64,000 nucleotides of DNA from a virus (Duplodnaviria; Caudoviricetes), in IMG/VR virus record IMGVR_UViG_3300034069_002177, positions 128,001 to 192,000 of that record. One strand, given 5' to 3'. Position numbers and translations under genes: made by a program. The stretch's first letter is position 1. Every line of letters begins with the position of its first letter. A model generated the notes under the pieces. It was not told where the DNA came from. It ran no database searches and saw only the letters and a program-made list of their open reading frames with translations. Shown here one piece after another: positions 9,792-60,980 of this stretch.

Positions 9792-10355
9792 GTGAACGCG
9801 GTAGCTATCAAATGCAGAAAATGCAACAGAACCACACTCGATCCTAGTGGACTTTGTTTCTACCACAAGAACTCAACGAACACAGCTAAGGCTACTCGCT
9901 CGGTACCAGCACTAAAGTCCTCATCGAGCAACGGAGAAGACTTCCCAAAGTCGCAAGGATGGTTGGCTCATGAAACGGGGATTAGCGTAGCTGACTACGC
10001 ACAAGGCGTTTCGATGCTAGATCTGCCCGAAGATGAACAGTTCGTTCACTGGATGAAGGCACGCGTATCTATCAGGGCAATAGAGTCTGTTTATGCTCGC
10101 AAGGGTGTGGATGGCGCAAAGGATTACGCAAATAGCTGTGATGACACATCTTTAGCGCTCATTTGGGAGAGGCTAAACGGAAGCACGATGTCCGAGTTCA
10201 CAAGTGACGGACTCCGCGAAGGTTTCGTATCCGTAGTACGCGACCAAGTGGAACAGCGTGTCGAAAATGGCACCTTTGCGCCACTTCCTATTGATGGATA
10301 TATCCAAGCTTTCGGTGCATCTGATGAGCCGAGCAGCGCTTCTAGCTTCTTCTGA
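9792..10355 (+). CDS. Hypothetical protein with N-terminal C-C-C-H zinc knuckle
   Basis: KCRKCNRTTLDPSGLCFYH, then S/T/K linker; RBS AGAGGAAG, GTG start. Confidence 0.7.
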   Translation: MNAVAIKCRKCNRTTLDPSGLCFYHKNSTNTAKATRSVPALKSSSSNGEDFPKSQGWLAHETGISVADYAQGVSMLDLPEDEQFVHWMKARVSIRAIESVYARKGVDGAKDYANSCDDTSLALIWERLNGSTMSEFTSDGLREGFVSVVRDQVEQRVENGTFAPLPIDGYIQAFGASDEPSSASSFF

Positions 10356-10449
10356 AAATCGACTCGTTTGGGGTGGTCGTAAACAGCATTGTCGCCGTTT
10401 CGCTCTGATAGCATGAACCCGCTTAATAGGGATCGCTTGAAGAATTGGA

Positions 10450-11019
10450 ATGACGATGACTGCTACAACGGCACATGTGTTGCCAGATGAAGTGAGCAAC
10501 TTCCTACGGGACGTTCATCTCCACGGCAAGCCCGAATGCGCTAACTACTATTTCAAGGTTGCTGCCAAAAGTGGATGGTCCTTGCGCAAAATTGGCGGTG
10601 CTGTCGGGTTCTCTGCCGAAGCAATCAGAAACCGCATCAAGAATCTTGAACTAAATGAGGCTCATGCACTGGAGAGCGCACCTGTCATCCCCGAGTATCA
10701 ACCCGCACCCAAAAAGGTTCCTGAACCCAAGCAGAAAGAACTGCGGTACGTCATTCCCAAGTCGGTAGCGAAGAAGCTCCAAGACTTGAAAATTCTCGCC
10801 GCGCAAGTGAGTAGAAATACCCCCGAAGATGCACCTTCGAGACTAGCTAGCGCCGAGTTGGCTAGGTTGATGTTCGTTGAAAAGAGCAATGGAGCTACCT
10901 ATCAAGAAATAGCCGAAGCTACCGGTTTGTCATCGTGGGCTTCTGTAAAGTTCCGCCTGGGTCGTCACGGCTATATCAATCTCCCGCCGTCAATGGCGCA
11001 CGAACGTATTCTCAGTTAG
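10450..11019 (+). CDS. Double helix-turn-helix DNA-binding protein
   Basis: GWSLRKIGGAVGFSAEAIRNRI and GATYQEIAEATGLSSWASVKFRL. Confidence 0.7.
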   Translation: MTMTATTAHVLPDEVSNFLRDVHLHGKPECANYYFKVAAKSGWSLRKIGGAVGFSAEAIRNRIKNLELNEAHALESAPVIPEYQPAPKKVPEPKQKELRYVIPKSVAKKLQDLKILAAQVSRNTPEDAPSRLASAELARLMFVEKSNGATYQEIAEATGLSSWASVKFRLGRHGYINLPPSMAHERILS

Positions 11020-11049
11020 GAAGCTTTGATAGGGTGTGGCAAATTTCCA

Positions 11050-11072
11050 TGTCAGTGGGTTTGTAGTACACT
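11050..11072 (+). promoter_or_regulatory. PafBC-like promoter TGTCAG(TG)-N11-TACACT
   Basis: TGTCAG 11050-11055, TACACT 11067-11072; spacer is one base longer than canonical. Confidence 0.5.
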
Positions 11073-11120
11073 TGAATGCAGTAGGAAAGAAGCATCCTAG
11101 CGCAAATTGGAGGTGGCGAA

Positions 11121-11543
11121 ATGGCTCAAATGAAATTCGCTGTCAAGTGCCAAATGTGCAAAAACACTACTAAAGATCCTAGCGGTCTTTGCCAGCACCA
11201 CCGCAATCTCAGTGGTAGCGCGGTTCGCAAGCTGACATTCGGCTCGGGTTTGACCCCCAAGCAGGAAACGCTGAAAAGTGCCGTGGTAAGTAACACCGAA
11301 GACCAGAATCTTTATCTGAGCGCAGCGAGCATCCAAAACGAGATTGTCAAGGGCATCGCTTACGAATTAGATCTCACAGACGGATACGGCGAAGAATTCG
11401 ACACTCTGCAATCCGTAGAGGAAGCGGGCAAACCTAATGAAGGTCTTCTTGCATTCACAACTGTGGGCGGCGTGACAATGTACTTCTCCCCTGAGGAATT
11501 CGTAGATGTTCGTCTCGGTGATTCAGCCGTCAACGCCGCTTAG
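11121..11543 (+). CDS. Hypothetical protein with N-terminal C-C-C-H zinc knuckle
   Basis: KCQMCKNTTKDPSGLCQHH; RBS GGAGGT. Confidence 0.75.
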   Translation: MAQMKFAVKCQMCKNTTKDPSGLCQHHRNLSGSAVRKLTFGSGLTPKQETLKSAVVSNTEDQNLYLSAASIQNEIVKGIAYELDLTDGYGEEFDTLQSVEEAGKPNEGLLAFTTVGGVTMYFSPEEFVDVRLGDSAVNAA

Positions 11544-12217
11544 AGACCGCTAACGGCAATCGAGAAGATAGCCAATACGGGGATGATGATAAGAGCCGCG
11601 CCGAAGTACGTCATGTAGCGTCTACCAAATCGACGCGGGGGCTTGCCTGCACCATTGTCAACTATCTTGACGACGCTACCGGTACGCATGAGTCGGAATT
11701 TCTCTACTTCGTTGATACCCTGTGGCTTGTATCCCAAGAGTTTGTCTGAGCGATAATCATTTTCCAAATCAAATGTGTCGATGACCGGGAATTGGTTCGG
11801 GAACCACCGGAAGAACCCTTTGACTAGCGCTACAAAATCAGATGCAGTGTCTCGACTGTTGTCTACGAGACTCCGTACTTCGTCTTCAAACGTCTGACCA
11901 TCTTCACGGGACAGAAGCATCTCCTTGACGGACTTAGGCGTCCCGTCTGGGTGAAGCGTAAGCTGTTCTTTCCACGTCCTACCCGAGACATCTTGCTTCG
12001 GTTTGCGAACGGTAGGCTCATCCCGCTGCGTTTCTAGAATAATGGAATGACCACTCCAGTGAATCTGACCTATCGTGTCGATGAAGAATGGCTGATTGGC
12101 GTAGTCGAGCTTGCCTGCCCCATTGGATGAGACAGTGACTGTCGTGACGTTACCATCAGAGTTGTTCCTGATGGTGACTCGATCATTGGGCTGTAGTTCT
12201 GGGATGCTGAGCGGCAC
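11540..12217 (-). CDS. Hypothetical protein with C-terminal membrane anchor
   Basis: RBS GAAGG, GTG start; hydrophobic C-terminus YFGAALIIIPVLAIFSIAVSGL preceded by RRFGRR. Confidence 0.65.
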   Translation of the reverse strand: MPLSIPELQPNDRVTIRNNSDGNVTTVTVSSNGAGKLDYANQPFFIDTIGQIHWSGHSIILETQRDEPTVRKPKQDVSGRTWKEQLTLHPDGTPKSVKEMLLSREDGQTFEDEVRSLVDNSRDTASDFVALVKGFFRWFPNQFPVIDTFDLENDYRSDKLLGYKPQGINEVEKFRLMRTGSVVKIVDNGAGKPPRRFGRRYMTYFGAALIIIPVLAIFSIAVSGL

Positions 12218-12232
12218 TGTTCGTCCTTCGAC

Positions 12233-14206
12233 TTAATCAAACAACGCACTGAGCGTGTTATCCGTATTGACTACACTATCATTTGTGTTCGGCTTAGACA
12301 CCAACTCGCGAGCGGTTGCCTCAAAATCAGCGGCATCCATCACTTTGATGCCAAGCGATGCAGCCTTCTGCAATTTAGAACCGGCATCTTCACCAGCAAC
12401 TACGAGGTCCGTGGTCTTGCTGACGCTTGACTGAACATTGGCACCCAGTTTCTTAGCCTCGTCCGCAGCCTGCGTGCGACCGAACGTAGGAAACTTTCCC
12501 GTCATGACGAGGTTGAGTCCAATGAAAGGACTTGCGTTAGGTACCACAACACGCTCTGCTTCTACAGGCTTGTACCCGTATCGGACATACAGTTCACGCT
12601 CGGTACGCTCGATTCGCTCCTGAGCAGCAATGACACTCTTTGCCTTGGTACCCCCAAAGCGGGGAATTGCCAGAAGATCTTCTTCGCTTGCCTGAGCGAT
12701 ACCGCCGAGAGTGTGAAACCTTTCCGCAAGCTGGGTAGCAGTCGAAAGAGATGCGCGAGCAATTCCCAATGCAGCGAACCATTTGGCAACCGTTGCGCCC
12801 TTGATGGCATCCTGAATAGCCTTGACAGCCTTATTGGCGGAAACGGTACCCTGCCGGTCCAGTTCCGTAATCTGAGCAGGTGTGACACCAAGCATGTCCA
12901 CGAGGTCTTTGACGATGCCTGCGGCAACAAGCTTACCTACGAGAACGGATGAAACTCCCAGAACCCCAAGCTGTCCAAGCCCATAGGTGATGATCGTGAC
13001 AGGGTCGCAGCCACCTACAGAGCAAACAATGTCTTTGTTCTTGAAATAGATGGGCGATCCACAGGTGGGGCAGGCATCGGGAATGGCAATATCTACCGCA
13101 TCGGGGGAGTGGTCGCCGTTTCGACCAATGACATAAGGAATAACTTCGTTGCTGCGCTGAACATCAATCGTGTCATTGATTTTGATATCCATTTCCTGAA
13201 GGAAAGTTGCATTGTGAAGTGTAGCGCGAGCTACATCAACGCCAAGCTTGATGGGTTCGAAAACTGCCACCGGAACGATGCGTCCAGTACGCCCAGTGCT
13301 CCACTCGACAGCGTGAAGAACAGTCTGCTTGACTTCGGACTTGAACTTGAAAGCGACAGCCCAGTTAGGAGACGTGGATGATTCACCGAGGGCATCCCTC
13401 GTGGGCTGATCTCCTACCTTAATGACTACACCATCGGAATCAAATCCAAAGTCCTTACGCTCTGTTTCAAGGCGGGTGATGAGAGCCATGATGGAAGCAG
13501 CATGGTCTTCCTTGACCGTTTCGAAGAAGTGTTCGATAGAAGTGAGAAATCCCTCTTCTTCTAGCTGCCAAGTGGGCAGGTCGCCGCCGTAGGTTACGAA
13601 GTCAACGAACTCACCAATACCGGTAACGTTTTTGCGACGAATGATTCCGGTGGCAGTGTTTCGCGGGTTCGAGTAGTCGCCACCCAGGGGCGAGTTGTTC
13701 AGCTTCTCAAAATTCTCATGAGTGACGATGACTTCACCTCGAACTTCCGTCCGAACACGACCGGTGTCGATAGAGTCAGGCAGTTTTCCAGCGGAAATGA
13801 GTTCACGAATAGCGGGGGTGATGTCCTCCCCATAGATGCCGTTCCCTCGCGTAACGGCGCGCTCGAAGTATCCATCGACACCATAGATGACCGATGCTGC
13901 GCCACCGTCGTACTTCAATTCAACGGTGTATTTACGAGCCTCAGAGTTCTTGACGAATTCCTCGATATCTTCGGCGGCAAAAACTTTACGAAGAGAGAGC
14001 ATGCGCTCCTTATGGGCAATCTTGCCTTCAGGAACATACCCGTGACCGACGCCCGCTTCTTCCTCGTCCACGCCAAGTGAATCCAACTCAGCAACGATGA
14101 GATCGAACTCGTCATCTGAGATGACGGACTCGCCGGAGTAATAAGCCTGAGAGGCTTCATCTCGCTTGGCGCTCAGCGCGGCGATGCGTTCTTCTTTGTT
14201 AGTCAC
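12233..14206 (-). CDS. ligA: NAD+-dependent DNA ligase
   Basis: ELKYDG, TRGNGIYGEDIT, NPRN, DGVVIK, WAVAFKF, GRTG, ATLHN, Zn finger CPTCGS, BRCT SVSKTTDLVVAGEDAGSKL. Confidence 0.96.
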   Translation of the reverse strand: MTNKEERIAALSAKRDEASQAYYSGESVISDDEFDLIVAELDSLGVDEEEAGVGHGYVPEGKIAHKERMLSLRKVFAAEDIEEFVKNSEARKYTVELKYDGGAASVIYGVDGYFERAVTRGNGIYGEDITPAIRELISAGKLPDSIDTGRVRTEVRGEVIVTHENFEKLNNSPLGGDYSNPRNTATGIIRRKNVTGIGEFVDFVTYGGDLPTWQLEEEGFLTSIEHFFETVKEDHAASIMALITRLETERKDFGFDSDGVVIKVGDQPTRDALGESSTSPNWAVAFKFKSEVKQTVLHAVEWSTGRTGRIVPVAVFEPIKLGVDVARATLHNATFLQEMDIKINDTIDVQRSNEVIPYVIGRNGDHSPDAVDIAIPDACPTCGSPIYFKNKDIVCSVGGCDPVTIITYGLGQLGVLGVSSVLVGKLVAAGIVKDLVDMLGVTPAQITELDRQGTVSANKAVKAIQDAIKGATVAKWFAALGIARASLSTATQLAERFHTLGGIAQASEEDLLAIPRFGGTKAKSVIAAQERIERTERELYVRYGYKPVEAERVVVPNASPFIGLNLVMTGKFPTFGRTQAADEAKKLGANVQSSVSKTTDLVVAGEDAGSKLQKAASLGIKVMDAADFEATARELVSKPNTNDSVVNTDNTLSALFD

Positions 14207-14230
14207 GATTTCTTCTTTCTTCGATACGTC

Positions 14231-14259
14231 AATCTACCACATTGAAAGGGATACCGCAA
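14231..14259 (-). promoter_or_regulatory. sigmaA promoter for ligA, TTGCGG-17-TAGATT (extended -10)
   Basis: Reverse-strand reading. Confidence 0.6.
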
Positions 14260-14353
14260 TGCAACTTAGGAAGGGTCCAGACGGACAAGTTTTCGTATTC
14301 GGAATGAGTATGCACGTTGTCGTATAGGATGAACCACGAATACAGGAGCGTTC

Positions 14354-15133
14354 ATGAAAAGACTTGTCGGACTGGCAGCCATTACGGTTGCAACCGTTGC
14401 CTTGCTGACGGGTTGTACCGCCATTCAAAGCAAGCCCGAAGTCATCCACTACCCCACTTACCCAGAACAGAATGTTTCTGCTCCCAAGTATGACACAAAA
14501 GCCGGTAAGGCAACGAAGCAAATTAGCTACAACAGCGAGTCGGTGCAGACAAGCACGCTCATTCCTAATACCACCATCAGCCCAGATTCCATTCCTCAGG
14601 ATTTGCAAGATTCCAAGGTATTTGATATCACCCCACCGGTAGAAAACCAACCATTTATTGTCAAGATCACTTACAGGAGCAACAAGGCTGGATACTTCAC
14701 AGGGGTGTCATCAACAGGTGATTACACGGACACTATCAATTCATTCGATTCTCCTGGTACAAAATACGCCATTATTGGCGTGTACGGTAAGTCTCAGACT
14801 GAGGGCGTCAAGGTGTTCGGTGACGGGCAATGGACATTAGACATCACCCCTATTTCACAGTTGCCTGTTTTCAATGGCAAGAAAATTAGTGGCACAGGAG
14901 CTAAGGCGTTTCTTGTCAACGGCAAAACCGTCAACGTCCTCATCGCGGACGATGGTGCCGGTTTCAATCTTTACTCTTATGGGTACCAGAACCGAGTTCT
15001 CGAAAGCAACAACAGCGGGTCGCAGAATCTCAATACGGCACTACCCGGTAACGGCACAATTGTGATAGTCGATTACGACAAGCCCTGGTCCATCACCAAA
15101 GCTAAGAAGGTCGTCAGTGAAGAAGCTAAGTAA
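14354..15133 (+). CDS. Lipoprotein
   Basis: MKRLVG..., lipobox LLTGC; beta-rich body. Confidence 0.8.
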   Translation: MKRLVGLAAITVATVALLTGCTAIQSKPEVIHYPTYPEQNVSAPKYDTKAGKATKQISYNSESVQTSTLIPNTTISPDSIPQDLQDSKVFDITPPVENQPFIVKITYRSNKAGYFTGVSSTGDYTDTINSFDSPGTKYAIIGVYGKSQTEGVKVFGDGQWTLDITPISQLPVFNGKKISGTGAKAFLVNGKTVNVLIADDGAGFNLYSYGYQNRVLESNNSGSQNLNTALPGNGTIVIVDYDKPWSITKAKKVVSEEAK

Positions 15134-15869
15134 AGCCATCGCGGCAATGATTGCCGTGTCATTTCTACTCACCGCCTGTTCAAGTAGCAAGCCGGAGCCA
15201 GTACCGACTGCCACCAAAACAGAGGCGGCAGTCGTGCGCCCCAATTACGACACTAGTGATAAAGCTTCGATTCCTTTCACCATCAATGGAACTGGCTCAC
15301 GAGACATCAAAATCAACTTCCCTACTGGCTACAAGGAACCGTCTCTAGTGACCCTAAGTAGTAATGGCGCTGTCGATGTAACAGAGCTAAACTATGACGG
15401 TGACAGTGTTGCGGATACCGTCAGTATTGATTCCGACGAGGGTGGCTCCCAAACAGTCGCCAAATACCCCACAGCAGATACCCCCGCTCGAACTTCCAAC
15501 TTCCACGTCGATGCCAAGGATGGAGTTGCATGGGCTATCAGTGCGCAGTCATTGGGTTCCGTTCAGAAATTGTCCAGCCTCAGCGTTTCAGGTACCGAAT
15601 CGCAAATCTTTATGCTCGATTCAAAGGCTAACGTTCTGGACTTCAAAACCATCGGTGATGGTTCGGCAACGGTCTACATCATTCCTCTTAAAGGCGATTC
15701 ACCGGTATCGCTCGGTGGAGGTCAGGACACGGGCAACTACAGAACGCCAGCCTCTTCATCTAACGCCAATCTTAAGAACTATGAAGGCTCGGTATTCGAG
15801 ATTGTAGCGAACAACCCGGATACGCAGAGCTACCAATTGATTTTCACACAGCAAAATCTTGACAACTAG
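15117..15869 (+). CDS. Lipoprotein, paralog of upstream gene
   Basis: MKKLSK..., lipobox LLTAC; shared P(K/N)YDT and W.I...L.....SGT segments. Confidence 0.8.
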   Translation: MKKLSKAIAAMIAVSFLLTACSSSKPEPVPTATKTEAAVVRPNYDTSDKASIPFTINGTGSRDIKINFPTGYKEPSLVTLSSNGAVDVTELNYDGDSVADTVSIDSDEGGSQTVAKYPTADTPARTSNFHVDAKDGVAWAISAQSLGSVQKLSSLSVSGTESQIFMLDSKANVLDFKTIGDGSATVYIIPLKGDSPVSLGGGQDTGNYRTPASSSNANLKNYEGSVFEIVANNPDTQSYQLIFTQQNLDN

Positions 15870-15896
15870 CACACAATTGAAGCGATTGCGTAAGAA

Positions 15897-15918
15897 TGTC
15901 AGAGGTGTTCGTTATTCT
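15897..15918 (+). promoter_or_regulatory. PafBC/RecA-NDp-like promoter TGTCAG-N10-TATTCT
   Basis: Exact spacing; -10 lies in the loop of 8-bp IR GTGTTCGT/ACGAACAC (15905-15932). Confidence 0.6.
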
Positions 15919-15946
15919 TTAAACACGAACACAAGGAGTGACAATC

Positions 15947-16936
15947 GTGCCTAGCAACAAGATCGCTTGCCTCAACCCCGAGGCTCACCACACTCAGACT
16001 CATATCGCTGGTTCTGCCGCAGCTATTGCCTGCCAGCAGACCAACGGACGCAGTACGAAGATGGCTCACATCGTTGTCCCTCCGCGTCAAGTGCATAAGG
16101 GTAACAACATCGGAAACGTTTCCGTACTCACCAACATCTCCGAGGAAGCCCTGGAGTTCTCTAAGGCGAATATCAAGCGCGAAACCCCTCGTAACGTCGC
16201 TTCTCTTATCGAGGTAGCATCAACAAGCTCTGCTCTTCGTGAACAGTTCAAAGATTTCACCCGTCCTTTCGTCAACTTGGTTCATGACGAAGACTATGCG
16301 GATGCTTACGGCGAGAACGCACTACTTCCCAACCCCCACGATGTAGGTTTCACCTATACCGAGCCTAACGACCAGACTCAGAAGATCATTGACGCTCAAA
16401 AGGCACCTGGGTTCAACGGATTTGTTCAAGCGCTGGCTACGGAGATGGATACCGACTTCGACCAGGCAGCTTCCGCCTACAAGGTAATTGCCGGTTACTT
16501 GGGTGATGAAGACATCGCTAAGGTATATGCCGTTGGTTGCCTTCGTTCCGAATACCTTGACCGCAAGGACGAGGTTGCAGAGATCAATAAGGGCATCAAA
16601 GAACTTGAAGCTCTTTTCAATGAAGAGGTGGACGACGGAACTAAGGTCGGCAAGCACGGTATCGGTTTTGCTGACGGTGACGGCGTTCAGTTCACCCCTG
16701 CTCGTCAGTTCAACTACGATGACGCCGCTCCGCTTCCCTTGGATGACCTCGAAGGCGATGAGCGTGCTGAGGCTGTCGAATACAACAAGAATCGACTTTC
16801 TCAGGACGCCTATAAGAGCATCATTAAGTCTTGGGAGCCCAAGTATGAGCCCCTAGCTAAGATCGAGAAGACCCTAGAAAAAGAAGACTTTGACAAGTTC
16901 GTCACCTTTGGCTCGACCAAATTGACTGTCAAGTAA
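15947..16936 (+). CDS. Hypothetical protein with N-terminal Cys/His motif
   Basis: RBS AAGGAG, GTG 15947; IACLNPEAHHTQTHIAGSAAAIAC; own terminator. Confidence 0.75.
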   Translation: MPSNKIACLNPEAHHTQTHIAGSAAAIACQQTNGRSTKMAHIVVPPRQVHKGNNIGNVSVLTNISEEALEFSKANIKRETPRNVASLIEVASTSSALREQFKDFTRPFVNLVHDEDYADAYGENALLPNPHDVGFTYTEPNDQTQKIIDAQKAPGFNGFVQALATEMDTDFDQAASAYKVIAGYLGDEDIAKVYAVGCLRSEYLDRKDEVAEINKGIKELEALFNEEVDDGTKVGKHGIGFADGDGVQFTPARQFNYDDAAPLPLDDLEGDERAEAVEYNKNRLSQDAYKSIIKSWEPKYEPLAKIEKTLEKEDFDKFVTFGSTKLTVK

Positions 16937-16944
16937 GACCCTTC

Positions 16945-16987
16945 AACTAAATGGTCCCTGTAGAGATACAGGGACCATTTAGTTTTT
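16945..16987 (+). terminator. Intrinsic terminator
   Basis: 18-bp perfect IR, GAGA loop, T-tail. Confidence 0.9.
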
Positions 16988-17048
16988 CCTTGTGTTACCT
17001 GAGCGAAGTGCTACGATGTGCATTCAACACAAGCTGCTGAGGAAATTG

Positions 17049-18305: not shown

Positions 18306-18318
18306 CAAAACCATCCCC

Positions 18319-18346
18319 GCCCCGGCTATTGAAAGATAGCCGGGGC
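18319..18346 (+). terminator. Hairpin without U-tail (possible terminator or processing site)
   Basis: GCCCCGGCTAT-TGAAAG-ATAGCCGGGGC. Confidence 0.55.
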
Positions 18347-18394
18347 ACAAGAACCAACACAGCGAACTGCAATTAGGGTAGGATACGAGCAATT

Positions 18395-21157: not shown

Positions 21158-21243
21158 TAGGTTTACGCCCAAAATGTCTTAGAGGGGTCAAGCGTTTGCT
21201 AAGCTTCCGAAAGATGAACGAGAGAATTGGCTAGGTAAGGGTA

Positions 21244-23511: not shown

Positions 23512-23611
23512 AAATAATTTCACGAGTTTCTCGATAATGAGATTCTAACCTGTGAATTTGCCTATAATTATGAATAGTCGTCCTATTGGTCTATTGAAAG
23601 GTGTATGACTC

Positions 23612-23947
23612 ATGTCAAATCTACTCGCTGCCGCTAATTCTAGCGTAACCTCGTTTGCTGCTACGATCCCCACGTTCACGTGGACCCCTCCCCAGGGTCT
23701 CGTTGACGCATGTACAAAGGTTGGCTTCGTGCTTGCTGTTATTTGGGTGTTGTTCATCCTGTTCCAGTTCGCACTTCCTTCCAAGCAGGGTGGTGGACGT
23801 AAGCTTAGCCGTATCGGTGTCATGGGATTCTTGGGTGCTGGCGCACTCATCCTCTTGCTCTTCAACATTGCTTCTCTGCCAGCAATCATTAACTGGATCA
23901 TCCAGGTAATCAACTACATCGCTGGTCTGTTCTCTACTATTAAGTAA
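23612..23947 (+). CDS. Small membrane protein, pilin/VirB2-like candidate
   Basis: 111 aa, two hydrophobic helices, RBS GAAAGG, position within T4SS cluster. Confidence 0.5.
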   Translation: MSNLLAAANSSVTSFAATIPTFTWTPPQGLVDACTKVGFVLAVIWVLFILFQFALPSKQGGGRKLSRIGVMGFLGAGALILLLFNIASLPAIINWIIQVINYIAGLFSTIK

Positions 23948-23968
23948 GCCCTACCCAATTCGCCAATA

Positions 23969-24030: not shown

Positions 24031-24059
24031 AATGAACCAATCACGAGACGAAAGACACA

Positions 24060-48845: not shown

Positions 48846-48870
48846 CCAAAGGACTACAATTGGTCCTGCC

Positions 48871-52709: not shown

Positions 52710-52721
52710 AGAAACGGACAG

Positions 52722-52765
52722 TTGTGAGTTCTCGGGTTGCATGGTATTGTGTAACCCGAGAAAGG
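52722..52765 (+). promoter_or_regulatory. Promoter TTGTGA-17-TATTGT embedded in 13-bp hairpin overlapping the sbcD RBS
   Basis: TTCTCGGGTTGCA 52729-52741 / TGTAACCCGAGAA 52750-52762; RBS GAGAAAGG 52758-52765. Confidence 0.65.
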
Positions 52766-52770
52766 CAAGA

Positions 52771-53937
52771 ATGATCAAGATTATCGCTATCGCGGACCCG
52801 CATGTCGATGCTACCTCTATTGGAGGATTTGATAAGGACAAGGGTATTCACTCGAACTGGGTAGAGTCCTTTGCTCGTCTGAATGACGCTATTGACGCAG
52901 CTAATGCGTGTGAAGCTCAGTTCTTCGTTGTGGCTGGTGACTTGTTCGATACCGGTAAGCCAACTGCTGAAGCTGTTGCGCTCGTTCGCGATGCCTTTCG
53001 TCGTCTTCATCCTGGTTGTATTGTCGTCATTATCGACGGCAATCACGATCAGCAGACGGTCGTGGGTAATCAGCGCACCCCTGTTGCTGCTTACTTTGGA
53101 GATCTCAAAAATGTTGTGACTGCTTCCACTCCTGAACTCATTGATATCGATGGAATGCAGTTCGCTCTAGCACCGTGGATTCGCGTAGCAGGCAAGTCGA
53201 AAGTTCGGAACATTAGCGACGAACTGAAAATGGTCGTGGAAGGTCTTTCGAACAAAGTAAAACCGGGACCGTCGATGTTCCTCGGTCACCTCGTGGTTGA
53301 TGAATGCACATTCGACAATGGGATGGATAACCGTGGCTCTGAAATGAACATGGCTACTACCTTGCTGGAAGCCCACGTTCCCACCGAACTACTCGATGCA
53401 GGCGAATGGTCACTAGCGCGGCTGGGTCACATTCACAAGCGCCAGCAACTTTCGGCAAAAACCGGTTACATCGGTTCGCCCTATAAAGTTTCGTTCGGTG
53501 AATATCGCGAGTCGAAGGGTTACGACCTCATCACTATTGACGACAAGAACAATTCTACTGTCACGTTCAAGGAACTAAAAGTCCGTAACCTCGTCAAGCT
53601 AGACCTCAGTTCAACTGGCGAAGACAGCATCACCGATATCGAAAAGGTGGGCGAACACGACATCGTTCGTCTTGTAGTTGATCACGATGGCGCTGATTCT
53701 TTGGACATCAAGAACGCTAAGGCGAGATTGGAGAAGCTTGGTATCTCTCATCAGATTTCTCGTCTGCCTCGACCCAAGCGTGATGCAATTTCTCGCGTGA
53801 ATGGTGCCGCTGTTGACACGACCCCGGTCAGCGCACTGCTGTTGTACTTGGACAGACACGGTGTAACTGAGCTTGATGAGCGCGATGCGCTGGTTCATGA
53901 ACTCAGTGCCATTCTCAACATGGTCGGGACTAAGTAA
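52771..53937 (+). CDS. sbcD: SbcD/Mre11 nuclease
   Basis: ADPHVD, VAGDLFD, IDGNHD, LGHLVV, LGHIHKRQ, YIGSP. Confidence 0.88.
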   Translation: MIKIIAIADPHVDATSIGGFDKDKGIHSNWVESFARLNDAIDAANACEAQFFVVAGDLFDTGKPTAEAVALVRDAFRRLHPGCIVVIIDGNHDQQTVVGNQRTPVAAYFGDLKNVVTASTPELIDIDGMQFALAPWIRVAGKSKVRNISDELKMVVEGLSNKVKPGPSMFLGHLVVDECTFDNGMDNRGSEMNMATTLLEAHVPTELLDAGEWSLARLGHIHKRQQLSAKTGYIGSPYKVSFGEYRESKGYDLITIDDKNNSTVTFKELKVRNLVKLDLSSTGEDSITDIEKVGEHDIVRLVVDHDGADSLDIKNAKARLEKLGISHQISRLPRPKRDAISRVNGAAVDTTPVSALLLYLDRHGVTELDERDALVHELSAILNMVGTK

Positions 53938-54492
53938 GTGAGCGATATTGTCTTTGGATTGCTCGTAGAGAACAACCAAAAGTTCCCAGCGGACGAACTG
54001 GTGGAAGCATTGGAAGATGCCGGTCGTGATGAAAAATGGTCATGGGTTCTCTGGGAACTCAACAGCGCTTACTTCGGCGTAATCAAGGGCTCATTAGGCT
54101 TCAAGGGTCGTGTTTCGCAAATCAGGCGCATCGAGGTTATTTCGCTGGGAGAAGCATTGGACGAAAGTGATGACAGCCGCGCTAAATGGATTGTTCCTGC
54201 GAAATCATCCACTGGTTCCGTCCACGAGTTTGCGCATCGCAAAATTGCCGGTTATGTTGCTGATGTATATGGCGAGAAGGTAAAGACCGAAGAAGACGCG
54301 TTCGTCAAGCCTAAAGAACGCGTTCTTGCACCCCTCAGTAGTCGCAAGAAGTTCAAGGGTATTATCCCTACAGCAACTGCCCACATGGGCTCTGAAGAAG
54401 GCGCAATGCCTGCTTCTGCCAAGCCCAATAATCCAGCACCTGCTGCATCTCCGGGTGGGGATATTGCAAGAAAATCTCGTCGCGGTAATTAG
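53938..54492 (+). CDS. Hypothetical protein
   Basis: GTG abuts sbcD stop; 184 aa. Confidence 0.6.
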   Translation: MSDIVFGLLVENNQKFPADELVEALEDAGRDEKWSWVLWELNSAYFGVIKGSLGFKGRVSQIRRIEVISLGEALDESDDSRAKWIVPAKSSTGSVHEFAHRKIAGYVADVYGEKVKTEEDAFVKPKERVLAPLSSRKKFKGIIPTATAHMGSEEGAMPASAKPNNPAPAASPGGDIARKSRRGN

Positions 54493-54601
54493 CTATCCGA
54501 CACGCCGAATAAACAACATCGTCTTTCAGAGACCATGTTAGTATTCGCGTAACGCAGGGCGTGAACATCATCCGCCTACACGAGAGAAAGGTCCGTAGTA
54601 C

Positions 54602-55282
54602 GTGTCCGATAACTACGACGAGCAGAACAACCAAGGCGATCAGAACATCACCTGGGGCAACGATAACGAAGGTCAGCAGGACGTTTCTTGGAACGCCCCA
54701 AATACCTCTGAGGAAGCCCAGGATGCGCCTCAGGAGGCGGTCAAGGTCAAGTCGAGCACTGGCTCTAACACGCTTTCCAATGGCGTCAGAAAGGCGCGTA
54801 GCGGCGAAGGTGCGGCGAACGTATTAAGTTGGTCAGATGTCGGATCCATTTTCGAGTTCACTGGAAAGTTTGAACAGCTAGAGTCAAACACGGCATCTCT
54901 CTTTTGTGAGTTATTCGACATCGACGCTGATAGTCATGTCATTGACGTAGCTCAGACTCTTTACCCATCTGGGGGAGAAATTGCTGCATTCGGCATTGTC
55001 ACCGACATTGTTGATATGGTTACCCAAGGTTCTGTTGGATTCGCAGATGGAATCAAGTTGGTCACTCGAATCGACGCCCTACCAGACCTCACCACCAAAA
55101 CGGTAGCTCGTCAGATTTCTTCTATTACGGACATTGAAATCAAGCATCGCAAGAACAGCCGTACAACCGATTTTGTCGCATCAATCCTTGATGCATTGGA
55201 CAAAACACGAGAAAGCGGTAAACTAGACAAACTGGCTGAGTTCCATGAACTCTTAGAAGTCTGGCCGGGCAACAAGAAGTAG
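54602..55282 (+). CDS. Hypothetical protein
   Basis: RBS GAAAGG, GTG start; acidic N-terminus. Confidence 0.65.
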   Translation: MSDNYDEQNNQGDQNITWGNDNEGQQDVSWNAPNTSEEAQDAPQEAVKVKSSTGSNTLSNGVRKARSGEGAANVLSWSDVGSIFEFTGKFEQLESNTASLFCELFDIDADSHVIDVAQTLYPSGGEIAAFGIVTDIVDMVTQGSVGFADGIKLVTRIDALPDLTTKTVARQISSITDIEIKHRKNSRTTDFVASILDALDKTRESGKLDKLAEFHELLEVWPGNKK

Positions 55283-55287
55283 GAGAA

Positions 55288-56130
55288 ATGACTAAAAAGT
55301 CGCTATCGAAGTGGTTCACACGCAACAAGGTATTGCTGCGCGATGTCCTCGTCTGGGTTATCATCGGTGCCATTGGTGGTACGGCGACAGCGTTCATTCC
55401 AAAAGTCTCCGAGCAGAACCGTTTGGGTGTACTTGCTAACGCAGGGATCGTCACTCTCAACATTCTCGTTTTCTACATTGCATTCGCAGGAGTGGTGAGA
55501 AATATCTTCAAGCCGTCGCAGGGTGTAATTGGTGCCGCTAAATTCATTTTCCGAAAAGACATGACAACAACCCTTTTCGGAGTGATTCTTTTCGGTATCG
55601 TCTTTGCGAGCCTTCCGACGATTGCATCCCGAGGGGTATTCCCGCTACCTCCTACGGGTCCAATCGTCATTGGGCTACTGGGGGCATGGCTCGTCATCAT
55701 TTTTGCGATGAAACGTCTATATGCCATTCAGTTCTACGAAGAGGTTCTCACGCCCAAAGAGCGCAAAAAATACGAAGCTGATTTGGTAGCGAAACCTGAG
55801 AAGGTCGAGAAAAAGGGTATGTTCCTTGTAGACCTCAATAACATGATTCGGTCACGCTCGAACAGTATCACCAAAGTCGAGAAGCCTCGTACCCACAAAG
55901 TTATTTTCCCAAGCGTGCAGTCGCTATTCGTACTGTTATCACCCGCCGTTGTGCTCTCGTGGTCTCTCTACGTATTCCCACTAGAGAGCTACACAATCTT
56001 CTCGGCAATCACCGCACCTGCTGTCATTGCGTTAGCGGGTGCTGCTTGGGGAATCTGGCACGTCAAGGGTGGATTCACCCGTGTGGTTACCAAGCGGGTA
56101 GGACGTGTCATGGAGTCCACAAAGTCCTGA
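55288..56130 (+). CDS. Polytopic membrane protein
   Basis: About six hydrophobic segments; RBS AGGAG. Confidence 0.7.
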   Translation: MTKKSLSKWFTRNKVLLRDVLVWVIIGAIGGTATAFIPKVSEQNRLGVLANAGIVTLNILVFYIAFAGVVRNIFKPSQGVIGAAKFIFRKDMTTTLFGVILFGIVFASLPTIASRGVFPLPPTGPIVIGLLGAWLVIIFAMKRLYAIQFYEEVLTPKERKKYEADLVAKPEKVEKKGMFLVDLNNMIRSRSNSITKVEKPRTHKVIFPSVQSLFVLLSPAVVLSWSLYVFPLESYTIFSAITAPAVIALAGAAWGIWHVKGGFTRVVTKRVGRVMESTKS

Positions 56131-56173
56131 TTCTTCAAGGATCTGGACTGTTCCAAAATCGCTTGAAAAAAAG

Positions 56174-56204
56174 TTATCCACAGCCCTTGTGCTCCTGTGC
56201 ACAA
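56174..56204. promoter_or_regulatory. Two DnaA-box-like 9-mers upstream of whiB-like gene
   Basis: TTATCCACA 56174-56182 (perfect) and TGTGCACAA 56196-56204 (one mismatch); overlap TTGTGC-17-TAGATT. Confidence 0.5.
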
Positions 56205-56258
56205 CCTGTTAGATTTACCCCGTTGATCGTTACTGATGTGAAGTGGGTTATTTAGCGT

Positions 56259-56942
56259 ATGGGTATACTAGACGTTTCTTGGGATAGTTCGGATTCGAAT
56301 GAAGAAGGACTGTTCCCAATTTTTGACAATATGGAGAGCCGCGTAAGGGTTCCTAAAACAGTGAAGTCGTTTGACATCACGATGCGACGCGAAGACCGCG
56401 ATATCGAGGCAGACTACGTGTTCATCGTATGGCTTGCTCGTAAAAAGGTCGGCGGCGTTTTCAATGATGGAAGTGGTCAAGCTATTTCTCGCGATGAAGG
56501 GCATCTCGCTGTCTGTGCAAAACCAGACCTTTTCCCCATCATCAATCCCGAGATTGGACCTCTGGATATCGATGACTTCTTTGCAGAGTTACCTTTTGCC
56601 GAAGACTATGACGCAGGCGAGGACAATGAGCAGTACCAACTCGACTATGTGAGTTCGGCTATCAAGATAATCAATGCGAAGAATGCATGCAAGGCATGCC
56701 CCCTTCGTGCCAAGTGTCTTGCTGATTCAATTCTTATGGGTGATGAAGATCGTGATTTCGGTGCGAATTCAAACGTTCGACCACTTCCTGGTATCTGGGG
56801 AGGGCGTGAGTTGAAAGATCGCAAGAGCGTGGCACGTCGTTTCAAGGCAATTCGAAATGACTATCTCTCGAACGATATGTCAGCCGACAAGCGTCGTATG
56901 TACGAGCGCAAGGCATCGCAGTTTATCGATGACCGACCTTAA
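56259..56942 (+). CDS. WhiB-family Fe-S transcription factor, extended
   Basis: C-x57-C-x2-C-x5-C and GIWGG, basic C-terminus. Confidence 0.75.
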   Translation: MGILDVSWDSSDSNEEGLFPIFDNMESRVRVPKTVKSFDITMRREDRDIEADYVFIVWLARKKVGGVFNDGSGQAISRDEGHLAVCAKPDLFPIINPEIGPLDIDDFFAELPFAEDYDAGEDNEQYQLDYVSSAIKIINAKNACKACPLRAKCLADSILMGDEDRDFGANSNVRPLPGIWGGRELKDRKSVARRFKAIRNDYLSNDMSADKRRMYERKASQFIDDRP

Positions 56943-57378
56943 GCAGTACATCAAAGATAATGGTGCAAGAGATATTCCTACCTTGGCATATCTAACTGGC
57001 ATTGATGAGGAAATTCTTGTGGGTGTTTCCGAGGGCAGACTGAGCCTTGGCGAGATCCATAAGAAAGCCATCAAGAAAGTATTGCCCGAAATGCCTGACT
57101 CATTGATGTCCCCTAAGTATCGTGACTTTCCTTCCGACATAGAGACCTCTAAGGGTCAGATTCCTGAGGGTACGATGTTGTTGCAAATTCAAGCAGAAGA
57201 AGTACAATTGGGAGACATGCTCCTTGCCGCTCACAAAACTTCGGTTGCGGGATCGCACTGGGCTGTTGTATCATCCATCAAGCAACAAGGTAAAAACCTC
57301 ATCATCAGAATCGGAAACGGTATCGATATAGGGGTGAGCAAGACCAACTTAGTGAAAGTAGCCAGAAAAAGACAATGA
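56929..57378 (+). CDS. Hypothetical protein (HTH-like N-terminus, SH3/KOW-like C-terminus)
   Basis: ATG 56929 overlaps whiB end; IPTLAYLTGIDEEIL; VQLGDML..WAVVSSI. Confidence 0.55.
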   Translation: MTDLKQYIKDNGARDIPTLAYLTGIDEEILVGVSEGRLSLGEIHKKAIKKVLPEMPDSLMSPKYRDFPSDIETSKGQIPEGTMLLQIQAEEVQLGDMLLAAHKTSVAGSHWAVVSSIKQQGKNLIIRIGNGIDIGVSKTNLVKVARKRQ

Positions 57379-59768
57379 CCGAACTTACCCCATCAGAATA
57401 CGCAGAACCCGATTCGGCTGAAAGCGTAGAACCTGAAACTGTCAAGCTCCCCCACGATGGGGTAGAGATTCTTGACGCGGTTCTCGCACATCGAGGATGG
57501 GATAGACGAGCCGGTCAGGTGCAGGTAGTTGATGCCATCAGCGATGCTGTCAATAAAAGCTACCCAGGGTCCGCAGTAGACATCTCGGCTAATGCTCCCG
57601 TTGGAACGGGAAAGTCACTTGCCTACATCATTGCTGGTCTGGCTGCTGGAAAGCGCATGGTCGTTGCTACGAGCACCAAGTCCCTTCAGGACCAACTAAT
57701 CAAGGAAGAGCTTCCAAAGCTCAAGGAAGACCTCATGGCTATCTATGGGTTCGACCTTACCTATGGCATGATGAAAGGTAAGAGCAACTACCCTTGCCTT
57801 TCTTCTACTCGCGCCATGCTCGGTAACGGAGATAAGAACGACTTGGTTCTTTTCGATGAAATCGAAGAGCCTGACAGTCGTGACATCGAGACCTTGAAAG
57901 AAATTCTCACTAGGGCAGAGCATGCGCAGGAGACCCGAGACGTTCTTTCCTTTGACGCCGAAGCACTCATGGGTCGGCTTCGCCCTGATACGCGCAAACA
58001 GATTAGCGGAAGTAAGAACTGCGCCATGCAGCGCGAGAAGTGGATTGATCCGAACAAGATCAAGAACCTCCCGCTTGACATCGAAGAGGGCGCTCGTGTA
58101 CAGGACTTTCCGCAGGACTTTCTTGACGAGGTAGCGCAACTTCCCGCTGAGATCGCTTGCACGAGTCGGTGCATCTACCGTGCAGCCTATGGTCATGCAC
58201 TGGATTCTCAGATTGTTGTGGTTAACACCACATTGCTGGCATATGAACTCATCAAGACGGATGGCTACATGTCTGAAGAGTCGCTCAATCCTTATCTTCT
58301 CAAGGGTATTGATATGCTCGTCGTGGATGAGGCGCACCACCTTTTCCGTATCCTTGCCGAAGCATTCTCTGTTGAACTCAATGTCACGAAGTCGATGGAC
58401 CTCGTTGATGACATTTCTAAGAAACTGAGCAAGCGCTACGGTGACGATCCTATGTTCGACCGATTCCGCAACGACTTCATTGACGCCGAGAACCGTATCA
58501 ACCACGTTATTGACGGTGATGCCGAGACCGAAAATGAGTTCCGAAAGGATCTTGCCGAGGCATTGGTACATGTTGCTGGTCGGTCAGAAAGCTTCGTGGG
58601 AGAACTACAAACTTTCGCTGCCAACTCAGAGCGCCAAAACAAGTCGGGTCTTGCTCTGGACCGCAACGGGGTGCCGAAAGTGGTCGCTTCGATGGGTACC
58701 CAGATTGCTGAGGACATCGTAGCGAACGCTATCAAGCTGTCCGAGCAGTTGGAAATGGTTGACAGCCAGAAGCGTCACCAGTTCTCACTCAACTTCTCTG
58801 ATGCTGGTCAGCCTTTGAACGTGAAGACCGTACCTATCGACGTTTCATTCTTCCGCAAGATGGTTACCCGTTCGTCCCAAATGCAGAACATTTACACCGG
58901 AGATACCGGTCTTCTGTTCCCGGCTACCCTTGTTCTCAGTTCGGGAACGATCTCCAGGGGAACGCCGATTACTGTCGGTATGAAGACGGATAACTATGTC
59001 GATGTCGAGAGCCCTTTTGACGCGAATCGTGTGCGTGTTTATGTCCCTAAGGGTCTTGGCATGCCTAAGGGTAGAGATGATCGTCAATGGGCTTACAACG
59101 CATGGAACCACATCGAGCCGCATATCGTAAAGCTGAATGGTCGTACGCTAATCCTCACCACTAGCCACCAAAAATGTGAAGAGTTCACAACGCTCGCACG
59201 TGAAGCACTACCCGCTCATATAGAAGTTCTTTCGCAGAGCGACCGGTTGGGTAAGGGCGAATTGATTGCCAAGTTCAAGGAAAGCCCCAGCGCTGTTCTG
59301 GTAGGAACTACTTCGTTCTGGGAAGGTGTTGACATTCCTGGCGATGATCTCAATCTTGTAGTCATCGAGAAGCTCCCATTCCCCCAGCCTAATGACCCTA
59401 TTTTCAAGGCTCGCGAAGAGTTTGTGAAGGAGCGGGGCGGTAACCCATTCATGGAAGTCGGCGTAGACTATGCAGCAACCATGCTTGCACAGGGTACTGG
59501 TCGCCTCATTAGAGCCGTCAAAGACATCGGCGGAATCATCATCCTTGATGACCGCGTTCTAACCACTCGTTACGCTGGTGCTGTTGTGAACCTTCTTCCT
59601 AAGGGCTGGAAGGTGACTACCGAGCGCGAAGCATTTGGGAAGTGGATGAGTGCAATCAATCCTGAGACTCGAAAAGAGCCGTTCGTTCCCTCTGCTGCTG
59701 ACCCATCGATTTGGCGCAACATCGGCGGAAATAATCAGGGTAAGCGACGTAGCATCTCGCCACACTAG
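57375..59768 (+). CDS. dinG: DinG/YoaA-family SF2 helicase
   Basis: APVGTGKSLAY, VVDEAH, SSGT, GTTSFWEGVDIPG, KLPF, QGTGRLIR. Confidence 0.9.
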   Translation: MTELTPSEYAEPDSAESVEPETVKLPHDGVEILDAVLAHRGWDRRAGQVQVVDAISDAVNKSYPGSAVDISANAPVGTGKSLAYIIAGLAAGKRMVVATSTKSLQDQLIKEELPKLKEDLMAIYGFDLTYGMMKGKSNYPCLSSTRAMLGNGDKNDLVLFDEIEEPDSRDIETLKEILTRAEHAQETRDVLSFDAEALMGRLRPDTRKQISGSKNCAMQREKWIDPNKIKNLPLDIEEGARVQDFPQDFLDEVAQLPAEIACTSRCIYRAAYGHALDSQIVVVNTTLLAYELIKTDGYMSEESLNPYLLKGIDMLVVDEAHHLFRILAEAFSVELNVTKSMDLVDDISKKLSKRYGDDPMFDRFRNDFIDAENRINHVIDGDAETENEFRKDLAEALVHVAGRSESFVGELQTFAANSERQNKSGLALDRNGVPKVVASMGTQIAEDIVANAIKLSEQLEMVDSQKRHQFSLNFSDAGQPLNVKTVPIDVSFFRKMVTRSSQMQNIYTGDTGLLFPATLVLSSGTISRGTPITVGMKTDNYVDVESPFDANRVRVYVPKGLGMPKGRDDRQWAYNAWNHIEPHIVKLNGRTLILTTSHQKCEEFTTLAREALPAHIEVLSQSDRLGKGELIAKFKESPSAVLVGTTSFWEGVDIPGDDLNLVVIEKLPFPQPNDPIFKAREEFVKERGGNPFMEVGVDYAATMLAQGTGRLIRAVKDIGGIIILDDRVLTTRYAGAVVNLLPKGWKVTTEREAFGKWMSAINPETRKEPFVPSAADPSIWRNIGGNNQGKRRSISPH

Positions 59769-59792
59769 CCTAAACTCACTGTCTTGTCTAAG

Positions 59793-59814
59793 TGTCGGTT
59801 CGTACTGATATGAT
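59793..59814 (+). promoter_or_regulatory. PafBC/RecA-NDp promoter motif TGTCGG-N10-TATGAT
   Basis: Exact match to TGTCGG-N10-TANNNT. Confidence 0.65.
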
Positions 59815-59846
59815 ATGGATTACAAGGCAAATAGTTGGAGGTTGTC

Positions 59847-60980
59847 GTGGGAGTAGGTTCCGCCAAGTGCAAAAAAGATTCGTGTGCTCGTAGCACAACG
59901 GGTCTCTATTGCTGGCAGCACTGGTACCTCAATTACGCAGATACGGAAGAAAGTGCCCGTTCTGGTCGCCTCGAACGTCTCGCTCAGCAGCGGCATGACA
60001 AGGGTTCGCAATCTGATTCAACCGAATTCAAAGAGACTCCTTTTTCTGGTGACACCACTCCAACTCAGATTTGGTCAGACACCAAAAAGGTGTTCATGGA
60101 CATCCAAGATCAAATTGAACCGGAAGGTATCCGCAACCAAGTCAGATCGTACGCCGAGGGTATCGCCACTACGGCTTCGCTTCGTTTTGCAAAGGATGAA
60201 AGACTCGAAGTAGACACTGATTTGCGAGACCGTCACATCGAAGGATTCACTTCTGAAATTGTTGAAGGTCTTGTTCCTACCGGCGAGCTTGTAGCTCAGG
60301 AAGACGCTGAGTTCATTAGCGGCTCGGTTCCGGCTGACGGGCTAGGTGGTTTTGCCGACTACGACGACGCTCGCGCGATCATTTCCTACGGTATTCGTAA
60401 AGAGTGGGAACTAGCTAATGCAGAACGCATCAAAGAATCTGCTGATGAAATTCCCTATGACATTCCTTACGACAAGTTTCTTTCTGTCGTCTACAACAAC
60501 GACATTGCGCCCCACCTCGTCGTAGCGACTCGTCGAGAAGCGAGCGACTTCCATAACAACGTCGTCATCGCTACAGGCAGCAAGGCGGCTAACCCAGCAG
60601 GAGTAAATCCCGTGGGTGCATTGCCGTCCCGTGCTGAGTCTGAACCGCTACACTCAGCCTACTTCGATGAAGCACGTGAATGGGTTGCTCAGAATCAAGC
60701 TGACCGCGATGCGCAAGCCAAGGCGCAAGCGGAAGCAGAAGCTATTGAAGCGGAACGCATCCAAGCACGCCAGGATGCCGTTGCCGGGGTACTCAATGGT
60801 GCGACTAACACAGTCAAGGGCGCGGTCAATCTCATTGGTACCACCACTGATGTCATGAACAAACTTTTCAAGACTCGACCCGAAGACACTCAAGCTCTTA
60901 TCGAACGCAGAAACAAGCAAAATAGAGACATCTTCTTTGATATGGCTACCCGCCGATACCGCGACCGCAGAGGTCTTTGA
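59847..60980 (+). CDS. Hypothetical protein with N-terminal C-C-C-H zinc knuckle and C-terminal coiled coil
   Basis: KCKKDSCARSTTGLYCWQH; RBS GGAGG, GTG 59847. Confidence 0.7.
   Translation: MGVGSAKCKKDSCARSTTGLYCWQHWYLNYADTEESARSGRLERLAQQRHDKGSQSDSTEFKETPFSGDTTPTQIWSDTKKVFMDIQDQIEPEGIRNQVRSYAEGIATTASLRFAKDERLEVDTDLRDRHIEGFTSEIVEGLVPTGELVAQEDAEFISGSVPADGLGGFADYDDARAIISYGIRKEWELANAERIKESADEIPYDIPYDKFLSVVYNNDIAPHLVVATRREASDFHNNVVIATGSKAANPAGVNPVGALPSRAESEPLHSAYFDEAREWVAQNQADRDAQAKAQAEAEAIEAERIQARQDAVAGVLNGATNTVKGAVNLIGTTTDVMNKLFKTRPEDTQALIERRNKQNRDIFFDMATRRYRDRRGL

Follow-up and report, generated by a model that had tools for sequence, protein, structure and literature searches.

The 64,000-nucleotide stretch of DNA analysed here (hereafter the window) covers bases 128001-192000 of one IMG/VR record, IMGVR_UViG_3300034069_002177, which is 202,737 bp long and has a GC content of 51%. 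Three of its genes, which we call p1, p2 and p3, and a fourth, p4, located in the same record 4.1 kb beyond the window end, encode proteins that begin with the same tag of three cysteines and one histidine. This N-terminal tag is real, statistically secure and conserved. The proteins retrieved with it strongly support the view that it is a portable module, carried by at least 44 groups of proteins with no BLAST links to one another. Sequence comparison makes it a relative, shortened and as yet uncatalogued, of the DUF5763 finger: C3H fingers of the DUF5763 type are already known, although unstudied, and what is new here is the uncatalogued N-terminal version. With regard to its role, we tentatively suggest that the tag anchors to nucleic acid the proteins that carry it.

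The tag in p1 to p4

A preliminary description of the window had quoted three tag strings, from proteins starting at 9792, 11121 and 59847, and all three strings are present at these positions. In p1, p2 and p3 the motif C-x2/4-C-x8-10-C-x2-H falls inside the first 27 residues, and all three genes are on the plus strand. The p1 protein (9792-10355, 187 aa; GTG start after GAGGAAG) carries the tag at residues 8-25 (nucleotides 9813-9866), followed by a polar linker and an acidic body; p2 (11121-11543, 140 aa) carries it at residues 10-27 (11148-11201), again followed by a linker and an acidic body. In p3 (59847-60980, 377 aa; GTG start behind GGAGG, the longest open reading frame beginning instead with a TTG at 59835 that we judge a less likely start) the tag occupies residues 8-25 (59868-59921), and leads through a linker that extends to about residue 69 into a helical core (residues 70-240), a coiled-coil and a basic tail. 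The p4 protein (196103-196810 of the record G000, equivalent to L006:4103-4810; 235 aa) has the form C-x4-C-x10-C-x2-H at residues 7-26.

When a hidden Markov model (HMM) of the tag was run on the 1485 open reading frames (ORFs) of the record, it returned exactly p1 to p4, with scores of 46-50 bits, the next match having an E-value of 0.35. Of 197 non-overlapping ORFs, the pattern itself gives 4 matches, all of them N-terminal (first 40 residues). Shuffling the residues of these ORFs 1000 times gave on average 0.07 matches over the whole length and 0.009 over the N-terminal 40 residues, and never more than 1. The tags of p1 and p2 share 54% identity over 28 residues. Beyond the tag there is no similarity in any pair among p1-p4, which bears out the earlier statement that the regions downstream of it are unrelated. 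In 56 tagged proteins the 40 residues that follow the tag contain an excess of Ser, Ala, Pro and Gly, and the tags themselves have a mean net charge of +1.9. The tagged bodies have a median isoelectric point (pI) of 4.7 versus 5.5 for the whole element; we considered the acidity of the cargo as a clue to function and discarded it, since the pI shift is too small to interpret.

No family was found for p1-p3 in Pfam or PHROGs, the sole Pfam row on a tag (zf-C2H2 on p2, with an E-value of 0.39) being noise. The p1-p2 region, searched as DNA, has no match among annotated phages, and the p3 protein has none among annotated phages and plasmids. The public gene calls for the p1 (P0001, 113 aa) and p4 (P0157, 199 aa) of this record start at internal codons and have lost the tag, so that tags are under-counted in protein databases.

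Conservation of the tag within protein families

A search of 5.8 billion clusters yielded one homologue of p1, P0002, which is 54% identical and keeps the tag; it sits in a syntenic 6.3-kb contig (L001) that also holds a p2 homologue, P0003. The tag is kept both in P0003 and in the other p2 homologue, P0023. In nine homologues of p3, with identities down to 22%, C8, C13, C22 and H25 are invariant, and the tag is present in 9 of the 9 relatives of p4 that have an intact N-terminus. Overall, the four ligands are invariant across all the homologues of p1-p4 that were found. The look-alikes of p3, p4 and p1 in the ESM Atlas were all below 0.85 and provided no usable lead; a search with the p3 alignment recovered no related loci from IMG/VR and GTDB genome contigs.

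The spacing between the first two cysteines is not a fixed property of each family. In the p4 family the CxxC form is found in P0160 and P0163 (= L002), and the CxxxxC form in the remaining members. In the p3 family, P0069 and P0081 bear a tag of the p1 type, CxxC...NP[DS]G; P0069 is a p3 orthologue, because it lies in the expected gene order (WhiB / DinG / topoisomerase / p3 / SSB / SbcC / PDDEXK). These exchanges of CxxC and CxxxxC inside orthologous families show the subtypes to be variants of a single module. Scores contribute little here: HMMs built by leaving out one family at a time recovered the other tag families weakly (E-value 0.016 in 1485 ORFs), and because of this weak cross-recovery it is the exchanges within families, and not the scores, that carry the homology of the p3/p4 tags with those of p1/p2.

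Occurrence of the tag on unrelated proteins

Compared with 1.84 billion cluster representatives, a profile built from 16 tags matched 130 proteins at E ≤ 1e-3. About 54 of these contain a single tag, starting at residues 5-30 (mostly 5-11), which is followed by a linker rich in Ser, Pro, Ala and Gly and then by a body, for a total length of 56-625 aa. The consensus of 61 tags is x-K-C-x-x-C-N-N-x-T-x-D-P-S-G-x-C-x-x-H, in which the ligands are invariant and the Thr is present in more than 90% of cases. The bodies of the approximately 54 tagged representatives fall into 44 C-terminal groups without BLAST links. The search thus yielded 44 body groups and not one common architecture, in agreement with the modular tag on unrelated cargo that had been proposed from the window.

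Some of the cargo is recognisable. P0014 combines two tags with a MoxR-like AAA ATPase, and P0099 one tag with a DUF2201_N/DUF2201 metallopeptidase-VWA protein; in L007 the MoxR AAA and the DUF2201 protein (L007:10001-11707) are both tagged, and the pair in L008 likewise. The tag of P0099 begins with MNAVA, as does that of p1. The window encodes its own versions of the two enzymes, a DUF2201_N/DUF2201 protein (metallopeptidase and VWA-like; 5972-7441, plus strand) and a MoxR-like AAA ATPase (7545-8744, plus strand), which match the tagged relatives with BLASTP E-values of 1e-23 and 4e-49, respectively, and have no tag. Since these enzymes are tagged in L007 and L008 and tagless in the window, the tag has been gained or lost on the same enzyme.

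Relationship to the DUF5763 finger

In hmmscan runs the DUF5763 model of Pfam (PF19067, with a cut-off of 26.3 bits) had no match in p1-p3 at E ≤ 1, nor in another 20 proteins, tagged or tag-like, at E ≤ 0.1 or 1, and none of the Pfam models scores above threshold on the tag. The relationship becomes apparent in an hhalign comparison of the 61 tags with 40 segments of the DUF5763 type, several of which are confirmed as PF19067: the two align at a probability of 97.8%, with an E-value of 1e-12, over 18 columns from Cys2 to His+3, in a comparison that is partly circular and thus not fully independent, because the segments had been retrieved with the tag profile. The two kinds of finger have in common the core C-[KRN]-[RN]-x-T-x-[DN]-P-S-G-x-C-x-x-H, with the Cys, Cys and His in register. 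This core is complete in the tags of p1 and p2; those of p3 and p4 retain its ligands and Thr/Asn, with a turn that is shortened or altered.

The other matches to the tag profile are mostly repeated or C-terminal fingers, assigned to DUF5763 (39), zf-TRM13_CCCH (20), WRC (19), zf-C3Hc3H (16), Zf_WRKY19 (13) and zf-primase (7). In 5 matches the DUF5763 segments are fused to Endonuclease_NS, a family of DNA/RNA non-specific endonucleases, and further matches carry GIY-YIG (4), T5orf172 (2) or zf-primase (7). Many of the DUF5763-type proteins (P0016, P0018, P0022, P0028, P0077, P0082 and others) are small and have a signal peptide; their mature chain starts with the finger, ...AAQC-x3-T-K-K-G-x-Q-C-K-R...C-W-Q-H, and then repeats it. 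Some of these exported fingers are located on Endonuclease_NS nucleases.

Among proteins of solved structure the sole sequence match is the HNH endonuclease of phage GVE2 (GVE2 HNHE; PDB 5H0M, 5h0m_A residues 8-33), in its N-terminal CxxxxC...CxxH region, with an E-value of 0.037 when 16 tags were used and a non-significant 0.34 with the 61-tag profile. As the N-terminal 38 residues of this protein are disordered in the crystal (PMC5304195), its ribbon offers no structure for comparison.

Predicted structure

An AlphaFold2 model of residues 1-45 of p2, calculated with the 61 tags, predicts a short hairpin (strands 8-9, 16-17), after which the CxxH opens a helix that begins at residue 25, with C24 and H27 at its start; the predicted local distance difference test (pLDDT) score of the finger is 76-79. 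The term zinc knuckle, used in the preliminary description, thus fits the part of the model in which a knuckle is held in the hairpin; as a name for the whole it is loose, since the model adds the start of a helix. A Foldseek search of the PDB with this model gave nothing below an E-value of 2.7, and VIA-align nothing above a Z-score of 2.8, far under a meaningful Z. The look-alikes at this insignificant level are the A20 finger of ZNF216 (Z 2.6, root mean square deviation 2.1 over 33 residues), Rabex-5 (Z 2.5) and the N-terminal finger of TtuA (Z 2.8).

The model of p3, based on 9 sequences, has a mean pLDDT of 61, with the tag unfolded and the linker at pLDDT values below 50 up to residue 69; it has no match in the PDB. 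Residues 72-308 of p3 (encoded at about 60060-60770) have a look-alike among the AFDB clusters, the uncharacterised 276-aa protein A0A2N6TZY7, which corresponds to the core only (Foldseek probability 1.00, E-value 5.6e-3, template modelling scores 0.34/0.44). Because the N-terminal 70 residues are missing from it, this protein may be a tagless cellular relative of p3.

Genomic context and promoters

The MoxR/DUF2201 pair is followed closely by p1 and p2, and between the latter two is a gene (10450-11019, plus strand) for a 189-aa protein with two helix-turn-helix motifs, at residues 44-67 and 147-162, approximately; the order p1, helix-turn-helix protein, p2 is conserved in L001. Upstream of p3 is a gene for a DinG-like helicase (57375-59768, plus strand; assigned from Helicase_C_2 on its orthologues and from gene order), and downstream of p3 one for an SSB-like protein (61123-61764, plus strand; assigned from gene order and from PF00436 SSB on the L010 orthologue), both directly adjacent. 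The neighbours of p1-p3 comprise MoxR/VWA, helix-turn-helix, ligase, DinG and SSB genes. The position of p3 between a DinG-like helicase and SSB is invariable. The p4 gene, which is apparently co-transcribed with the upstream nuclease gene, comes directly after this PD-(D/E)XK nuclease, and gyrB comes next both in the record and in L004. A longer order, WhiB, x, DinG-like, p3, SSB, SbcC-like, x, DnaN-like, x, PD-(D/E)XK, p4, GyrB, GyrA, is found from 57375 to 64000 of the window and on through L006:1-9470, as well as in L002, L004, L005 and L010; it holds among relatives in which p3 identity is just 22-27%.

The tagged genes of the window had also been described as sharing a promoter of the PafBC type. 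In the mycobacterial literature PafBC / RecA-NDp-type promoters have the form tTGTCRgtg-N8-TAnnnT. Promoter-like sequences on the plus strand are found 69 nucleotides before p1 (TGTCGGTG-N8-CATCAT, 9723-9745), 71 before p2 (TGTCAGTG-N9-TACACT, 11050-11072) and 54 before p3 (TGTCGG-N10-TATGAT, 59793-59814). The first is kept at -72 in L001, the second at -71 in L001 (with TATACT), and the third at -54 in L004, with a variant in L002 and none in L005. Those of p2 and p3 fit TGTCRG-N9-11-TAnnnT, and p1 has the variant TGTCGGTG...CATCAT. Exact occurrences of TGTCRG-N9-11-TAnnnT in the window number 3 versus 2.2 expected, which is not above chance, so that the case for a promoter is made by placement and conservation. 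The third exact occurrence, at 15897-15918, is about 20 nucleotides upstream of an ORF (15938-16936, 332 aa) with no Pfam family. The motif is absent upstream of p4 and of the tagged genes in L007-L009. The shared promoter therefore stands for p1-p3, where it is conserved in orthologous loci, and fails as a property of the tag: promoter and tag are not coupled.

The host element

The record is classified in its source database as a provirus of 96% estimated completeness. It was apparently excised from a much larger contig, as its own p4 (P0157) is assigned to a contig 654,127 bp long; there are relatives (P0009 and P0050) on contigs of 495 kb and 412 kb. All the tag-bearing contigs that were fetched belong to one kind of element, with a shared kit that includes a VirB4-like AAA_10 protein, FtsK/SpoIIIE, NAD-ligase, a DinG-like helicase, WhiB, SSB, an SbcC-like protein, PD-(D/E)XK and gyrase. 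The window also encodes Pol III alpha, DnaB, a tau/delta'-like protein, ribonucleotide reductase and Replic_Relax. Phage_capsid and TerL_ATPase, the two families tried, have no match in the record; since a full replisome and genes resembling a type IV secretion system (T4SS) are present together with this negative result, the label of virus may be a misclassification. The hosts of these giant, uncultured mobile elements are probably actinobacterial, given the presence of WhiB, a family whose range points to Actinobacteria. For every tagged protein whose contig was fetched the tag seems limited to this one class of giant mobile elements.

Possible functions of the tag

The reading that we favour, with a probability of about 0.4, is that the tag is a nucleic-acid anchor for its cargo. 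It would be a small, independently folding Cys3-His zinc finger, the metal being suggested by the ligand pattern, in which a CxxC or CxxxxC knuckle placed in a hairpin would lead over a T-x-[DN]-P-S-G turn to the C-x2-H at the start of a helix. Domain shuffling would have placed this finger at the very start of many unrelated proteins of one element class, and a flexible linker of 20-60 residues would join it to them. The finger would then tether to nucleic acid, plausibly the DNA of the element itself or single-stranded DNA, the replication/recombination-module proteins p3 and p4, the small acidic p1 and p2 and, in relatives, the MoxR ATPase and the VWA-metallopeptidase; once tagged, this last pair might work as a DNA-tethered machine for protein remodelling or proteolysis.

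In favour of an anchor, p3 and p4 are located within a conserved block of DNA metabolism (DinG, p3, SSB, SbcC, DnaN, PD-(D/E)XK, p4, gyrase). The fusions of DUF5763 with nucleases, the mildly basic character of the tag and the precedent of the phage HNH zinc ribbons also point in this direction, and make the anchor our best-supported guess; in a phage HNH nickase, deletion of the N-terminal zinc ribbon lowered activity and relaxed specificity (PMC3592412). Among the functions listed in the preliminary description (T4SS co-transfer, particle loading, single-stranded DNA binding and regulated proteolysis), it is nucleic-acid binding toward which the kinship with DUF5763-nuclease proteins and the HNH ribbon precedent lean, and none of the evidence leans toward translocation or proteolysis.

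Several observations weigh against an anchor, in addition to the weak cross-recovery of tag families and the partial circularity of the DUF5763 comparison mentioned above. The link of DUF5763 with nucleic acid comes from its fusion partners only. The conserved residues other than the metal ligands (N, T and D/N-P-S-G) appear to be structural, and do not look like a surface for DNA contact; the strict placement at residues 5-30 in the approximately 54 single-tag matches would be unneeded for DNA binding. The sole recognisable cargo domains, the MoxR AAA and the VWA-metallopeptidase, are protein remodellers and not DNA enzymes, a kind of cargo that would suit a protein-docking adaptor at least equally. 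Finally, the fold-level look-alikes include protein-binding fingers of the A20 type, at Z-scores too low to count as evidence.

Such an adaptor would resemble the effector-associated domains (EADs), with the tag binding to itself or to a shared hub and thereby coupling a changing set of effectors to a core machine such as the MoxR/VWA pair. EADs (Kaur, Burroughs, Iyer and Aravind 2020, PMC7159879) are small, non-enzymatic terminal domains of MoxR-vWA and GTPase conflict systems, with one copy on a core component and others on a variety of proteins, often the products of neighbouring genes; that they interact homotypically is a prediction of the same study. This layout is matched in L007 and L008, in which MoxR and DUF2201 are both tagged; in the present element p1 and p2 are encoded just downstream of the pair, the tags of the DUF2201 protein P0099 and of p1 share their MNAVA opening, and a strictly N-terminal position combined with a flexible linker would suit a docking module. 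However, the MoxR and DUF2201 proteins of this element are themselves tagless, so that p1-p4 have no tagged core with which to pair, and p3 and p4 are at least 50 kb away, in the replication module. Moreover, few surface residues of the tag are conserved, and 0 of the 10 EADs described are metal fingers (PMC7159879). On balance we consider a docking adaptor the main alternative, but rather an unlikely one.

It is quite doubtful whether the finger serves as an address label in a recruitment system, hitherto undescribed, that is peculiar to giant actinobacterial elements of the conjugative type. If it were true, the label would bring dozens of interchangeable proteins to incoming or transferring DNA, or to the transfer machine; the cargo would comprise anti-defence candidates, the MoxR/VWA-protease pair and replication accessory factors, some of them under promoters of the single-stranded DNA or DNA-damage type. 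The finger would amount to a zinc-finger-based code for cargo on DNA or for co-transfer. Independently of this proposal, a common anchor would mark out a functional set of proteins in mobile elements of 100-650 kb whose genes otherwise have almost no annotation, and would provide a first experimental handle on fingers of the DUF5763 type; a portable module of 20 residues able to bring any chosen cargo to nucleic acid, or to a single hub, would be of use as a tool.

It is also conceivable, but in our opinion distinctly improbable, that the tags have no ligand in common, and that each is a stabilising cap or N-terminal staple, for instance as a protection against degradation or as a degron switch. 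A module so tiny spreads easily; its conserved residues are those that the fold itself needs, similarity across families beyond the ligands is weak, and the same enzymes work without the tag in other elements. What a cap accounts for poorly is the retention of the tag on four families, including relatives with as little as 22% identity, and the recurrence of the same layout of tag, linker and body in 44 groups; a long flexible linker, in particular, makes little sense for a cap.

We hold it to be very unlikely that the tag is a signal for transfer or loading, marking proteins for export with DNA through a T4SS-like channel or for loading into a particle. The presence in this element of VirB4-like AAA_10, FtsK/SpoIIIE and Replic_Relax proteins, the seeming confinement of the tag to this element class and the PafBC/RecA-NDp-like promoter motif of p1-p3, of the type expected of genes induced by single-stranded DNA, are consistent with such a signal. 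Known T4SS signals, however, are C-terminal or internal and unstructured, unlike this N-terminal tag, and a tightly folded metal finger would be a poor leader for a channel that requires unfolding. In addition, p3, p4 and the MoxR/VWA pair would be odd cargo, no capsid or terminase family was found with the two families tried, and the sister finger DUF5763 is not a signal where it occurs, because it is C-terminal and repeated on Sec-exported nucleases. A capsid-targeting sequence was rejected, as neither of the two families tried, Phage_capsid and TerL_ATPase, has a match.

Comparison with known systems

The closest parallel is with DUF5763. Besides the core described above, the two have in common that they are small mobile modules present on unrelated proteins. 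They differ in the approach to the first cysteine, which in the tag belongs to a C-x2-C or C-x4-C knuckle (rarely x5-6), and in DUF5763 to a C-x9-C arrangement (C-x3-T-x2-G-x2-C) whose Thr is invariant and whose Gly is nearly so. They differ also in placement: DUF5763 is usually C-terminal or repeated, on nucleases and proteins with a signal peptide, whereas the tag is single and N-terminal, on cytoplasmic-looking proteins of giant mobile elements. The C3H fingers Zf_WRKY19 (PF24906), zf-TRM13_CCCH (PF11722), WRC (PF08879) and zf-C3Hc3H (PF13891) have the same C...C...C-x2-H order and the same length as the tag; they are mainly from eukaryotes or giant viruses and often occur in repeats. Tags of the CxxxxC form score 12-21 bits against Zf_WRKY19, whose cut-off is 27, and the scores on all four families are below the curated cut-offs.

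The zinc ribbons of phage HNH proteins (Group 1 of Xu and Gupta 2013, PMC3592412) resemble the tag in that an N-terminal unit of [CxxxxC]/[CxxC] and [CxxH] precedes an unrelated domain; unlike the Group 1 proteins, in which the ribbon accompanies an HNH catalytic domain encoded beside terminase genes, p1-p3 have no HNH domain, and the record has no match to TerL_ATPase. With the EADs, the tag shares the character of a terminal module common to MoxR/vWA core proteins and to unrelated proteins, lineage-specific and freely gained and lost. EADs, however, are helical or alpha+beta domains without metal ligands and belong to the defence systems of multicellular bacteria, whereas the tag sits on the replication proteins of a mobile element.

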